NCBI GenBank assembly: GCA_038062675.1
Contig: JBBTWP010000003.1
Coordinates: 129,378-193,377, forward strand
DNA: 64,000 bases
Direction of reading: 5' to 3'
DNA from: Patescibacteria group bacterium
GTDB lineage: Bacteria > Patescibacteriota > Minisyncoccia > Phycocordibacterales > UBA1550
Shown: one piece after another, positions 22,909 through 27,276 of the stretch
Layout of the letters: the number at the start of each line of letters is the position of its first letter
How positions within the stretch are numbered: the stretch's first letter is position 1
Program-made: the position numbers and the translations under genes
Notes under the pieces: generated by a model
The model's database searches: none
Seen by the model: only the letters and a program-made list of their open reading frames with translations
Told to the model about the DNA's origin: nothing

Positions 22909-23643
22909 TTACAGATTCCCATAGATTTCATCTGGCCTTCTTTTTGTCGCGGTCATTTTGAGGGTTTCGTGCAGGGCGTTGAATGTGGAAATAAATGCTA
23001 GTTCTTTGCTAATAGAGGCCTTTTTTGTTGCATGGTCAATGGTTACCAACATTTTTCCATCTGATATTATTTCAAGGGAAGTAATGAAGGAATTATTCGG
23101 GATACTGTGAAGGATTGTCGGTCTACCGAAGTGCGAGCCCAGTATTTTTTTTGGCAGGCTTTTTATTGTTCCAATCGCGTCATCCGTTATGATTGCGTCG
23201 ATGATAACTTGGCGCAGTTTTTGTCGGGTATGAGCTTGCCCAAAACTTTGTCCCTTGCCTATCATGTCGAGGATGGATTCAATCGCCTCCTTCCCTTGAA
23301 TGCCGATGATAGTATGGCTTCCACTTGCGTGCAAAGCCTGGTATGCATCAAGAATCGAAACAGAGTGATGAATCCTTTCTTGAAGAGAGCCGGTTGTTTC
23401 AAGGAGGGAAAGTGCCCATGTGTGAGATTTTGATGTGTTGTTGAGAATAACCAACCCGCGTTTTTTTAGTTTTTTGAGATTATAGAGGGCGGTGAGACGG
23501 TTAATGTCGAGCGCTTCGCAAAGATTTTTCAGAGCGATAGGCTTCTTTGATTGTTTGAGTGTTCGTAAGATAACCCCTTCCGTCTTATTCGGGAGGGCAA
23601 TTTTAGTAACCATTGCGGGTGATATGTTAAAATTTTTTGACAT
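22909..23643 (-). CDS. Winged-helix transcriptional regulator with an uncharacterised C-terminal domain. Co-oriented with ruvC.
   Basis: N-terminal wHTH (ILRTLKQSKKPIALKNLCEALDINRLTALYNLKKLKKRGLV). It is not YebC-like. Confidence 0.45.
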   Translation of the reverse strand: MSKNFNISPAMVTKIALPNKTEGVILRTLKQSKKPIALKNLCEALDINRLTALYNLKKLKKRGLVILNNTSKSHTWALSLLETTGSLQERIHHSVSILDAYQALHASGSHTIIGIQGKEAIESILDMIGKGQSFGQAHTRQKLRQVIIDAIITDDAIGTIKSLPKKILGSHFGRPTILHSIPNNSFITSLEIISDGKMLVTIDHATKKASISKELAFISTFNALHETLKMTATKRRPDEIYGNL

Positions 23644-23771: not shown

Positions 23772-23996
23772 TTGAACATGAAACTACTCGACATCACCCC
23801 TGCGAAATTTTCATGCGTACTCGGGATGTGCCCAGGAGTGTACGCATCTGATAACAGTTATGTTGTGGTTGGAAAACAAATTGACGCCAGCCGTCATTTG
23901 CCCGGTCGAGTTGCGCCACACGAACAGGCTGTGGAGATACCAAAGGAATTGCTTGAACAAGCGGTAGTTGATTATTTAAAAACAAGGCATAAGTGA
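23772..23996 (+). CDS. Small hypothetical protein (74 aa).
   Basis: RBS AGGA 7 nt upstream. Followed by a strong terminator at 24029-24060. Confidence 0.35.
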   Translation: MNMKLLDITPAKFSCVLGMCPGVYASDNSYVVVGKQIDASRHLPGRVAPHEQAVEIPKELLEQAVVDYLKTRHK

Positions 23997-24028: not shown

Positions 24029-24060
24029 GCCCCCGCACATTCGTGCGGGGTTTTGTTTTT
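24029..24060 (+). terminator. Intrinsic terminator.
   Basis: ccccgcac-attc-gtgcgggg followed by a T-run. Confidence 0.7.
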
Positions 24061-24123
24061 GAGTAGTTGCGTGGATGCAAAAACAGATTGTGCCTCTGTT
24101 AAATAGTTAAAGCAATTTTTGCT

Positions 24124-24215
24124 GTCGATCCTCGGGATATCCAAACCCAAATGCTCATACGCGCGCGCCGTGGCGATACGGCCACGCGGGGTGCGCTTTT
24201 TAGCGCCGTAGGGGG
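24124..24215 (-). pseudogene. Diverged duplicate of the ruvB 3' end (would encode ...RVYEHLGLDIPRIDS). Scar of an old insertion behind ruvB.
   Basis: DNA and encoded-peptide similarity to the true ruvB C-terminus at 26257-26340 (…[15 protein letters not shown]). Confidence 0.5.
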
Positions 24216-24318
24216 TTTAGTCGTAACTTAATACCAGCATTTTGGCTACAATATACTTTGTACGAATTCTTGACATGACATGTTTGCATTTCGTACATAT
24301 ATTATGTATACTTGAAGC

Positions 24319-24993
24319 ATGAGTATTAAGTACGCACCATTTATAAAAAGTCTTCGCACAAAAAAAGGGCTTTCACAGCTTGCGTTGGCGCAAAAGATAG
24401 GCATATCTCGCCCATTGTACATTGCAGTCGAGCAAGGGAAGCGAGAGCTTACACTGGGCGAATTTGATAAACTTTCGGGCGTGCTTGGAGTGTCGCTTGA
24501 GGAGCTTGAAGGTGGCGAGGTGCCCGATTACGAAAAGTACAAGCAAATGATTTTCATGTTTCTTCGTTTGAATAAAGAAATTACGAAAACAAAGCTGGCT
24601 AAACTCCTCTATTTTGCGGATTTTGGTTGGTTTTACTCTCATCTCAAAAGTATGAGTGGAATGCAGTATCGGAGAATTACTTATGGTCCTGTTGCGGATA
24701 CATATTTTCGACTTATCGACGAGATGTCCGAGGCGGGGGAGATATCTATCAAGCAAACAGAGGAGGGGGCTATGCTCATTTCCCAAACTCGAAGCGGATC
24801 AAAAGCGAACCTCTTGGGTGTAAGCATTGAAGAAAAGAAGCTTATAGAAAAGATTGATAAAAAATGGAAAGGCAAAAAAACAGCAGACATTGTAAAATTT
24901 ACCCACAATCAGTTTCCCTATCTTTACGCCCAAGATAATGAAATTGTGTCATACGGACTTTTTACTCAAGAAAATCCAGATGAAATCTACTAA
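24319..24993 (+). CDS. HTH-XRE domain fused to a Panacea (DUF4065, SocA/PanA-type) antitoxin domain.
   Basis: N-terminal KKGLSQLALAQKIGISRPLYIAVEQGKRELTL. C-terminal KLAKLLYFADFGWFYSHLKSMSGMQYRRITYGPVADTYF, as in Panacea-domain antitoxins. An imperfect palindrome tacata-tat-tatgta overlaps the -10 upstream. Confidence 0.7.
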   Translation: MSIKYAPFIKSLRTKKGLSQLALAQKIGISRPLYIAVEQGKRELTLGEFDKLSGVLGVSLEELEGGEVPDYEKYKQMIFMFLRLNKEITKTKLAKLLYFADFGWFYSHLKSMSGMQYRRITYGPVADTYFRLIDEMSEAGEISIKQTEEGAMLISQTRSGSKANLLGVSIEEKKLIEKIDKKWKGKKTADIVKFTHNQFPYLYAQDNEIVSYGLFTQENPDEIY

Positions 24994-25375
24994 CTACGAA
25001 GTAATATTCGAATCTTTTACAGAGAGGCACTTCATAAAATCCTTTGCTAAAAAATATAGAGGATCTTGGGACTTTACTTTTAAATATTTGTATCAAGAAT
25101 TCGAGCAGATAGAGCTATTGTTTTTGAAAAATACTGCTGAGACTATTTCAGATTCTGAAGATGTAAAAATTTGCAAAACTGAGTTTAAGATTGCGGGAAC
25201 ACAAGACTCAAGACATGGTTCAGGAAATAGATGTATTGTTGCAATTCATAAAAATATAAATAAAGTTCGTGTTTTACTCGTCTATCACAAAAACGATCTT
25301 GGCGGTGGCAATGAAACAGCAAACTGGAAAAGGGTCATAAAAGAAAATTACCCAGAGTACTTAAGCCTTTTATAA
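24980..25375 (+). CDS. RelE/ParE-superfamily-like toxin. 14-nt overlap with the antitoxin gene.
   Basis: C-terminal CIVAIHKNINKVRVLLVYHKND resembles the RelE beta-strand core. Coupled to the Panacea gene. Confidence 0.5.
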   Translation: MKSTNYEVIFESFTERHFIKSFAKKYRGSWDFTFKYLYQEFEQIELLFLKNTAETISDSEDVKICKTEFKIAGTQDSRHGSGNRCIVAIHKNINKVRVLLVYHKNDLGGGNETANWKRVIKENYPEYLSLL

Positions 25376-25384
25376 CAAACTCTT

Positions 25385-25440
25385 CTGCCGGTCCTCTAGA
25401 TAGTCAAATCCCAAGTGCTCATAGGCGCGCTTAAAGAGGC
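25385..25440 (-). repeat. Second duplicate of the ruvB 3' end (atagtcaaatcccaagtgctcataggcgcg).
   Basis: About 90% identical over roughly 35 nt to 26284-26318. Confidence 0.6.
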
Positions 25441-25479: not shown

Positions 25480-26262
25480 ATGAATATCCAAATAAACAAA
25501 AAATTTTTTATTTTCGTTGTAATTTTAACCATCTTTTCTTTAATCGGGTTAACAATAGATAATTGGGTTTCGCAAAGCACCCCAGAACTCTTCATTGCCG
25601 GGGTGTCTGTCGCAGTTCTCTTTTTTCCAGCAATCCTCGCCATCCTAGTGTCATTTTTGTTGGGAACACTAGTAAAGGTAATCATAGTACTCAAAGATTT
25701 TATTACGAAGAAAGAACCAATTCAGCTTAAAAATATTTTCCCCCGCACCGTTTCTTTACCACTAGTTGTGCTCTTTGCGTTATTTTTTTACTGGTCACTA
25801 CTTTGTAATTCACTAAACACAGCTCGAGAAAAACCTCTTGCAAGCGCCATAATATCAATTCTGACAAGCGAGCGAGGAATGGCAGAGCTTTACTACGAGC
25901 AAAATAATGGTTCGTATGGGGGACAAAAGCCAGCTTCGCATGAAACATGTTCTGCTGAGAGCACAATGTTTGTAGATAAGAATAGCGGACTCAGGAACAT
26001 AGAAAGCAACCGTGCTTATATAAAAGATTCGATGGTTTGTGCCGTTGGGGGCAAGGGGCAGACATGGGCAGTTAGTGTTAAATTTAGAACAGACCTCGTA
26101 CAAAACAGCTGCATTCCTTTTTCTAAAGGAATAAAAGATTTTTTTATTACGCCAAAGGAATCTTTGTGGTGTGTAGACAGTAGTGGGAAAGCCGGTCCAT
26201 CCTTAGATGTTGAGACTCACAACGATGGTTCTGTGGGTTGTGCTACCCCGCCAGTGCTATAA
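25480..26262 (+). CDS. Membrane protein (about 4 TM) with a C-terminal type IV pilin-like domain. Paralogue of the C-terminal part of 6956..8266. Leaderless-type promoter TGGTATAAT-N6-ATG.
   Basis: [14 protein letters not shown]...C...C pilin-head pattern. Extended -10 at 25465-25473. Confidence 0.5.
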
Positions 26263-27276
26263 AAGTCTCCCTTGCTTATCCTCCGGATAGTCAAATCCCA
26301 AGTGCTCGTAGGCGCGGGGTGTGGCGACGCGGCCGCGTGGGGTGCGCTCGAGGAGGCCGAGCTGGAGGAGGTAGGGTTCGTTCACTTCTTCGATAGCAGC
26401 AGTTTCTTCGGAAAGTGCTGCTGCAATTGTGGTGAGGCCGACTGGGCCGCCGTTGAATTTATCAATAATCACTTCAAGTATTTTTCGGTCGAGGGCGGTG
26501 AGGCCAAGCTCGTCGATTTCAAGCAGGGCAAGGGCGTCCGCGACAAATTTTGCAGAGATGTCACCGCGTTCTACTTGGGCGAAATCACGCGCACGTTTTA
26601 AAAGATAGTTTGCGGTACGGGGCGTTGCACGACTGCGACGTGCGATTTCTTGCGCAGCCTCGGCGGGCAAGGGGATTCCCAAAATCTCTGCCGAGCGCGT
26701 TACAATTTTTTCAATTTCAGGTTGTGTATAAAATTCGAGACGGAATGTGCCGCCAGAGAAACGCGAGCGAAGTGGAGCAGAGAGCATGGCGACACGCGTC
26801 GTTGCGGCGATGAGGGTAAAGGGTGGAAGATCGAGCTGAATGGTGCGCGCCGACGGACCTTTGCCAATAATGATGTCGAGCACGCCGGACTCCATAGCAG
26901 GGTAGAGCACTTCCTCAATCATCTTATTTAAGCGGTGAATTTCGTCGATAAAGAGCACGTCGCCAGGAGCAAGGTTGGTGAGAACCGATGCCAAATCACC
27001 CACCTTTTCAATAGCAGGACCCGAGGTGCTCTTCACTTGACAGCCCATTTCATTTGCGATAAGATGCGCTAACGTTGTTTTACCAAGGCCAGGGGGTCCG
27101 TAAAACAGCACATGTTCGGGAGGGTGGGCGCGTTCCTTGGCAGCCTGAAGCAGTATTTTAAGGTTTTTCTTTATCGTTTCTTGACCAATATAGTCATCAA
27201 AACGCTTCGGCCGCAATGTTTGGTCGAGGAAAGAAAACTCTTGATTTAACTGCTTATTTTGTTGTTCGGGGTCCAT
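26257..27276 (-). CDS. ruvB: Holliday junction branch-migration helicase RuvB.
   Basis: [22 protein letters not shown] Walker A. Full-length AAA+ RuvB. Confidence 0.9.

Follow-up and report, generated by a model that had tools for sequence, protein, structure and literature searches.

The 64,000-nucleotide (nt) stretch of DNA analysed here (the window; contig JBBTWP010000003.1, assembly GCA_038062675.1, from a Patescibacteria group bacterium of Hainich groundwater, ENA ERZ1292630) carries two overlapping genes, panA and panT, that very likely constitute a PanAT toxin-antitoxin (TA) module with a RelE-fold toxin. The explanation preferred overall, to which we give a probability of roughly 0.75, is a bicistronic, self-repressing type II module. 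An initial annotation made from the sequence alone had proposed an autoregulated type II TA module, and this proposal is supported by the operon structure, the tight coupling of the two genes, the presence in the antitoxin of a helix-turn-helix (HTH) domain with conserved operators, and the strict co-occurrence of the pair. The positions of all features are listed in Table 1.

Conservation of the gene pair

The two genes were placed by the open reading frame (ORF) listing and direct reading of the sequence. They lie in different frames and overlap by exactly 14 nt in the window, the length of overlap originally reported. PanT is 131 amino acids (aa) long, the 132 given initially having included the stop codon. 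A public gene call (P0001) starts panT at the ATG at 24938, inside panA, to give a 145-aa product. This start was discarded in favour of the ATG at 24980 because MKSTNYEV, the sequence encoded from that ATG, is where the homologues, the tblastn matches and the family alignment start.

Pairing was assessed in 80 loci from different GTDB species, each encoding a relative of PanT. The loci were informative in 77 instances (L080 being partial), while the remaining three were cut by a contig end. A PanA homologue was found directly upstream of panT and on the same strand in every one of the 77, and because the arrangement recurs in different species it is not due to chance. PanT relatives with 28% identity also retain Panacea partners, either with an HTH (244 aa) or without one (167 aa). 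The panA-panT junction was tight throughout: the genes overlap by 14 nt in 28 loci and by 11 nt in 20, and 2–7 nt separate them in 26. As panT is preceded by no Shine-Dalgarno sequence and its start codon falls within the end of panA, the arrangement suggests that translation of panT is coupled to that of panA.

The genes flanking the pair vary, with no family common to more than five of 79 loci. The DNA 3′ of the panT stop codon was unrelated between loci, and no conserved cassette end or attachment site was found in it. Because the pairing is constant and the flanks are not conserved, the mobile and selected unit is, as judged from these comparisons, the two genes together with approximately 60 nt upstream.

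Two loci encode longer PanT-like proteins of 191 and 198 aa. In L087, the PanA-like gene is divergent rather than in tandem, and in L086, which encodes the 198-aa protein, PanA was not detected nearby. Each comes from a single long-read-style contig, and these loci may reflect errors of assembly, or copies that were rearranged or orphaned.

Domain structure of PanA

The initial description of PanA as a 224-aa fusion of an XRE-type HTH to a Panacea domain was borne out by matches to two Pfam families, HTH_3 (E 6.8e-14, 52.1 bits against a cut-off of 23) and SocA_Panacea, PF13274 (E 8.5e-13, 49.7 bits against a cut-off of 25.7). The Panacea assignment therefore holds above the Pfam gathering threshold. 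In public records, PanA is labelled either SocA/DUF4065 or HTH domain protein. The GPV motif (G123-P124-V125) was invariant among 47 PanA homologues. This motif, which lies in the small β-sheet of Panacea, is functionally important in PanA (Kurata et al. 2022, PMC8832971).

In an AlphaFold2 model of PanA, with a predicted local distance difference test (pLDDT) score of 77.6, the HTH has five helices and is joined by a short linker to the Panacea domain, which is mainly helical but includes a small sheet. The C-terminal tail had a pLDDT below 50, yet is near-invariant among the homologues (N207, V210, S211, Y212, F215, Q217 and E218). Conserved segments that are probably disordered are typical of toxin-binding regions. 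Because it combines conservation with probable disorder, the tail, which is outside the Pfam bounds of Panacea, may be a toxin-binding segment used in neutralisation. Only HTH relatives were recovered when PDB sequences were searched with PanA, and none of the matches was a solved structure of a Panacea domain. Among solved structures, those closest to the PanA HTH were the C-proteins C.AhdI and C.BclI, which are controllers of restriction-modification systems, and the phage 434 repressor.

Predicted structure and candidate active site of PanT

An alignment of 99 PanT-family sequences, extending down to approximately 24% identity, was used as input for AlphaFold2. The resulting model had a mean pLDDT of 94.7 and a predicted template modelling score of 0.87, and its topology was β1-α1-α2-(short α)-β2-β3-loop-β4-β5-α-α. 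This is the arrangement of the RelE/ParE (BECR: Barnase-EndoU-ColicinE5/D-RelE) fold, in which β1-α1-α2 is followed by an antiparallel β-sheet, and the modelling shows that PanT has this fold, confirming by structure prediction what had been proposed for the small protein. In structural comparisons the model scored 10.9 against archaeal RelE 1wmi (84 residues, 2.1 Å), 9.8 against YoeB, 9.0 against Streptococcus pneumoniae HigB, 8.7 against Vibrio cholerae HigB2, 8.6 against Mycobacterium tuberculosis RelE1, 8.4 against YafQ and 7.4–8.4 against several ParE. A Foldseek search agreed in ranking RelE, YoeB and HigB above ParE. The RelE/ParE-like core motif that had been recognised at the outset, CIVAIHKNINKVRVLLVYHKND, is present at residues 85–106, where it makes up strands β4 and β5 of the RelE-type sheet in the model. 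The extended N-terminus that had also been described did not survive modelling, as β1-α1-α2 is itself a component of the standard fold. The additional 40 or so residues are instead accounted for by a third, short helix, a β3-β4 loop of 13 residues and two helices at the C-terminus.

When a hidden Markov model (HMM) built from the alignment was compared with 177,635 PDB sequences, the only top matches were HigB-2 chains (E 0.017). In this match, S-x-K-x-SGNR-x-I...ILLVY-x-K is aligned with GKRGGSRIIYY...LLTIYGKNE, such that PanT residues R84, Y102 and K104 correspond to R64, Y82 and K84 of HigB2. Alanine substitutions at these HigB2 positions reduced activity 350-, 1200- and 3000-fold (PMC5416850). 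Among the 99 PanT sequences, R84 was found in 98, Y102 in 97 and K104 in 98, and K66 (98), F69 (96), S77 (97) and E112 (99) were also near-invariant. K66 is on the same strand as the position equivalent to R51 of HigB2. From the pattern of conserved residues, PanT is reasonably likely to be a ribosome-dependent mRNase of the RelE/HigB2 type.

When clustered at 90% identity, the homologues of PanT form more than 1000 groups, all of them unnamed or "hypothetical" and mostly labelled Patescibacteria; at 50% identity there were 176 cluster representatives. One further protein, P0265 (1073 aa), includes four separate stretches that match the helical N-terminal part of PanT (residues 25–81, E 5e-06). 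This segment may have been repeated to build P0265, or the match may have arisen by chance.

Several observations weigh against reading the pair as a TA module with a RelE/HigB2-type toxin. The 131-aa PanT had no significant match in Pfam, NCBIfam, PADLOC or PHROGs, and so lacks a match to any curated toxin HMM in these libraries. The HigB2 match is marginal taken alone. The correspondence of residues with HigB2 is that of a sequence alignment, not of a three-dimensional superposition, and at position 70, which is equivalent to HigB2 R51, no more than 50 of the 99 sequences have K or R. The toxin family is known from sequence and predicted structure only. PanA is basic (pI 8.9), unlike many antitoxins, which are acidic. 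In the study that defined Panacea antitoxins, some predicted PanT were non-toxic in Escherichia coli and some PanA failed to neutralise their partner (PMC8832971).

The initial annotation had offered HMM searches as a check on both proteins and, while PF13274 was recovered for PanA, the RelE/ParE clan was not recovered for PanT. No match was found to the curated RelE/ParE families, including PF05016 (ParE_toxin), PF06296 (RelE), PF05973 (Gp49), YoeB, YafQ and HigB. A Pfam scan of all 99 family members gave scattered single matches, and only one of the 99 touched PF06296, below threshold (E 0.014). The library matches of PanT to PIN_11 (E 0.077), TraG-D_C (E 0.15) and phrog_35177 (E 0.0097) were regarded as noise. 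A search of predicted viral protein structures (BFVD) with PanT returned no credible match.

Predicted promoter and conserved candidate operators

A promoter was predicted upstream of panA by a promoter scan, and the 80 nt upstream of panA were aligned for 61 loci. The consensus of this strongly conserved stretch of non-coding DNA consists of ATGTCAAnnTTATnAACA, 4–5 nt, ATGTTTGAcTTtTTTACAt, TATAcT, 6 nt and the ATG of panA. The candidate operators O1 and O2 in the window correspond to ATGTCAAnnTTATnAACA and ATGTTTGAcTTtTTTACAt, respectively, and the core positions are 70–99% conserved. Both blocks are 19-bp elements of the form ATGT-N11-ACAT with inverted ends, which fits binding by dimeric XRE HTH proteins, and the second includes the −35 element (TTGAC in the consensus). 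The TATAcT sequence and its 6-nt spacing to the panA ATG are kept across loci. With only 6 nt between the −10 element and the ATG, the panA-panT mRNA is probably leaderless or nearly so, its start being predicted from the promoter sequence.

An antitoxin with an HTH together with two conserved palindromic elements, the second of them over the −35, is what is expected of an autoregulated type II module. The initial case for autoregulation had been made from the gene overlap and an imperfect palindrome over the −10. This palindrome, TACATA-TAT-TATGTA (24294–24308), is present and is rich in A and T, but most homologous loci lack it, and it was rejected as a conserved operator; the conserved sites lie over and upstream of the −35. 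Autoregulation is supported by the predicted sites O1 and O2 rather than by the −10 palindrome.

Probable insertion at the 3′ end of ruvB

The module had been placed in one of the ruvB-associated islands, and this location was verified by two non-identical, decayed copies of the 3′ end of ruvB that exactly bracket panA-panT in an islet of approximately 1.2 kb. When RuvB was used as a tblastn query, the distal remnant matched residues 307–331 at 72% identity and 326–340 at 67% identity in two frames, and its DNA could be aligned with the end of the live ruvB. The nearer remnant, which is convergent with panT and whose stop codon abuts that of panT, showed 76% identity over residues 320–340, and a stretch of 31 nt within it matches the end of the live ruvB at 97% identity. 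A second islet, with a 260-aa ORF, lies between the nearer remnant and the end of live ruvB. The G+C content (GC) is 0.32–0.40 across the module and 0.51–0.58 in ruvB. From the two remnants, the structure looks like the product of two successive insertions at the 3′ end of ruvB, each displacing the prior gene end. No integrase was found near the islets, and the arrangement suggests repeated insertion at this position.

A general association of the module with ruvB was considered and rejected, as RuvB adjoins the module only on the contig that includes the window. In the other loci the module is found at other sites, and in L022 and L033 it starts right after an apparent tRNA 3′ end (GGTTCGATTCTCC…CCA-type). 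These two sequences suggest that the module is also found at tRNA-linked insertion sites elsewhere.

The winged-helix protein gene and the small ORF listed in Table 1 lie between ruvC and the distal ruvB remnant, and may be further accessory cargo of the same hotspot.

A few loci are labelled as originating outside Patescibacteria, namely L040 (Verrucomicrobiota, on a 96-kb contig), L035, L047 and L075 (Gammaproteobacteria) and L023 (Bacteroidia). These labels could be an artefact of binning or naming, or could reflect real transfer beyond the phylum.

Table 1. Features of the panA-panT locus and its surroundings, with positions in the window
Feature	Position	Strand	Description
Winged-helix HTH_20 protein	22909–23643	−	244 aa, E 2.8e-06
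Small ORF	23772–23996	+	74 aa, no family match; followed by a strong terminator hairpin at 24031–24050
Decayed ruvB 3′ end, distal islet boundary	24107–24207	−	Last ~34 codons and stop, 1-nt frameshift
O1	24259–24275	+	TGTACGAATTCTTGACA, TGT-N11-ACA; candidate operator, part of inverted repeat I1
O2	24280–24298	+	ATGTTTGCATTTCGTACAT, ATGT-N11-ACAT; candidate operator, overlaps the −35 hexamer
Promoter (predicted)	24283–24312	+	−35 TTTGCA 24283–24288, 18-nt spacer, −10 TATACT 24307–24312
panA	24319–24993	+	224-aa predicted antitoxin-repressor; stop codon 24991–24993
PanA XRE HTH	24343–24507	+	Residues 9–63, Pfam HTH_3
PanA Panacea domain	24595–24912	+	Residues 93–198, Pfam PF13274
PanA GPV motif	24685–24693	+	G123, P124, V125
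PanA C-terminal tail	24931–24990	+	Residues 205–224; conserved, predicted disordered
panT	24980–25375	+	131-aa RelE/HigB2-like predicted toxin; 132 codons including the stop; ATG 24980, stop 25373–25375
PanT candidate catalytic residues	R84 25229–25231; Y102 25283–25285; K104 25289–25291	+	With K66 and invariant E112
Decayed ruvB 3′ end, boundary nearest ruvB	25370–25432	−	Last 21 codons and stop
Second islet ORF	25480–26262		260 aa, no Pfam match; between live ruvB end and nearer remnant
Live ruvB	26257–27276	−	RuvB used as tblastn query

Alternative explanations

The pair may serve mainly in abortive infection or phage defence, with PanA sensing a phage trigger or being lost on shut-off and PanT stopping translation before the phage completes its cycle. 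Such a role, which would be added to the same mechanism, is possible but doubtful. Some loci adjoin a DNA methyltransferase or restriction-type gene, an AbiEii gene or a KAP/STAND NTPase gene, the module has spread horizontally into variable contexts, and toxins of the RelE superfamily have been proposed as defence toxins (PMC11980606). However, PanT has no match in PADLOC, and defence genes are not a consistent feature of the neighbourhood, where no family is found in more than five of 79 loci.

A toxin of the ParE type, poisoning DNA gyrase within an otherwise identical module, appears improbable. The RelE, YoeB and HigB structures all rank above ParE as matches to the PanT model, the sole relative at the sequence level, HigB2, is a ribosome-dependent RNase, and three of the four HigB2 catalytic residues are near-invariant in the PanT family. 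It is equally improbable that PanT is not a toxin at all, and is instead an inactive RelE-fold partner, such as a co-repressor or RNA-binding factor, of an HTH-Panacea regulator. The several predicted PanT proteins that were non-toxic in E. coli (Kurata et al. 2022) and the unusual conservation of both proteins (55–80% identity over many lineages) would fit such a role, but near-invariance of the residues matching the HigB2 active site is unexpected for an inactive scaffold, and an overlapping, antitoxin-first operon in variable contexts is typical of TA modules.

A type VI system resembling SocAB, in which PanA would deliver PanT to a protease such as ClpXP rather than acting by binding alone, is very unlikely: although Panacea is a domain of the proteolytic adaptor SocA (PMC8832971) and PanA has a weak match to NCBIfam SocA_antitoxin (E 0.005), its score against the SocA equivalog NF047745 was 16.5 bits with a cut-off of 190, the PanT fold is that of RelE and is not SocB-like, and all nine validated PanAT pairs act as direct-binding type II systems.

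Proposed mode of action and significance

In the type II PanAT module that we favour, panA and panT would be read from a sigma-70-type promoter as an mRNA that is probably leaderless, with panT translated by coupling to the end of panA. PanA, probably as a dimer, would bind O1 and O2 via its XRE HTH and, by covering the −35, repress the operon, as the conservation of these sites implies. By analogy with validated PanAT pairs, PanA would also keep PanT inactive by binding it directly, with the Panacea domain, and perhaps the tail, in contact with the toxin. Free PanT is predicted to be a RelE/HigB2-type ribosome-dependent mRNA endonuclease, using K66, R84, Y102 and K104 on the face of the β-sheet. 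PanT would be freed once PanA was degraded or its synthesis ceased, as might follow loss of the islet or shut-off induced by phage, and would then cause arrest of translation and growth. The two genes would move as a unit between Patescibacteria, the copy in the window being an islet of approximately 1.2 kb in the 3′ end of ruvB.

The module is real and is common in Patescibacteria, whose genomes are tiny, but as a system it is unremarkable and of a type already known. Patescibacteria are often assumed to have few TA or defence systems. It has been hypothesised that classical defences, TA systems among them, are largely absent from reduced genomes (PMC12455944). Despite that hypothesis, Patescibacteria carry this widely shared, horizontally mobile module. 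More than 1000 clusters of "hypothetical" proteins can now be named as predicted PanT toxins with a RelE/HigB2 fold, and candidate catalytic residues and a defined candidate operator are supplied for the family. The pairing adds a further RelE-fold partner to those of Panacea and supports the promiscuity of this domain. The module fits within existing concepts and opens no new mechanism; its main interest lies in its spread and high conservation in Patescibacteria and in its clean operator architecture.

A more far-reaching interpretation is that the RelE-fold PanT with HTH-PanA is a dominant, recently spreading TA or defence module of Patescibacteria, a 1.2-kb cassette with its own operator-promoter that inserts without its own integrase at the 3′ termini of housekeeping genes, ruvB being one, and leaves stacked gene-end remnants. 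The toxin may also use K66, S77, R84, Y102, K104 and E112, unlike known RelE subfamilies. We regard this interpretation as speculative and unlikely.

Comparison with known systems

Panacea antitoxins were defined by Kurata et al. (2022), who found HTH extensions in 343 PanA and showed experimentally that nine pairs behave as type II systems acting by direct binding, the antitoxins forming complexes with their cognate toxins (PMC8832971). The module described here shares with PanAT systems the antitoxin-first two-gene operon, the GPV-bearing Panacea domain, the N-terminal HTH, a partner from the RelE superfamily, mobility and a variable context. Unlike in the known PanAT systems, the toxin is outside the Pfam, NCBIfam and PADLOC models (PADLOC-DB being an HMM library for anti-phage defence). 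In Dataset S1 of that study, the predicted PanT clusters T14, T28 and T59 have HHpred matches to HigB-2, YoeB or RelE, and within the part of the dataset considered here these RelE-like clusters bear no mark as tested and the terms "Patescibacteria" and "Parcubacteria" are absent (PMC8832971). The toxin family is new or unannotated within a known type of system, as far as this part of the dataset allows; it is set beside T14, T28 and T59 by description only, and could be one of them. A 2025 survey of RelE/ParE families by Gerdes does not mention Panacea.

Among solved structures, the only significant-looking sequence relative of PanT is the ribosome-dependent mRNase HigB2 of V. cholerae (HigBA2; PDB 5ja8, 5ja9, 5mje and 8a0x). 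The two share a long Gly/Ser/Lys-rich β3-β4 loop, disordered in HigB2, before the strand carrying the catalytic Arg, and each has a C-terminal helix. They are only approximately 13–16% identical, however, and PanT carries a pair of C-terminal helices. Its equivalent of R51 is not conserved, whereas K66, S77 and E112 are near-invariant. The HigB2 operon is also toxin-first, and HigA2 has a C-terminal HTH, a disordered N-terminal neutralising segment and no Panacea domain. Archaeal RelE (Pyrococcus horikoshii PHS013, PDB 1wmi) and YoeB are minimal toxins of 88 aa that lack the β3-β4 loop and C-terminal helices of PanT, and their partners are RelB or YefM antitoxins.

The DNA-binding part of PanA finds its parallel elsewhere. 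C.AhdI, C.BclI and the phage 434 repressor bind as dimers to adjacent palindromic operators over a promoter, which matches the two-operator layout upstream of panA. These proteins have neither a Panacea domain nor a toxin partner, and the likeness is confined to the DNA-binding module.
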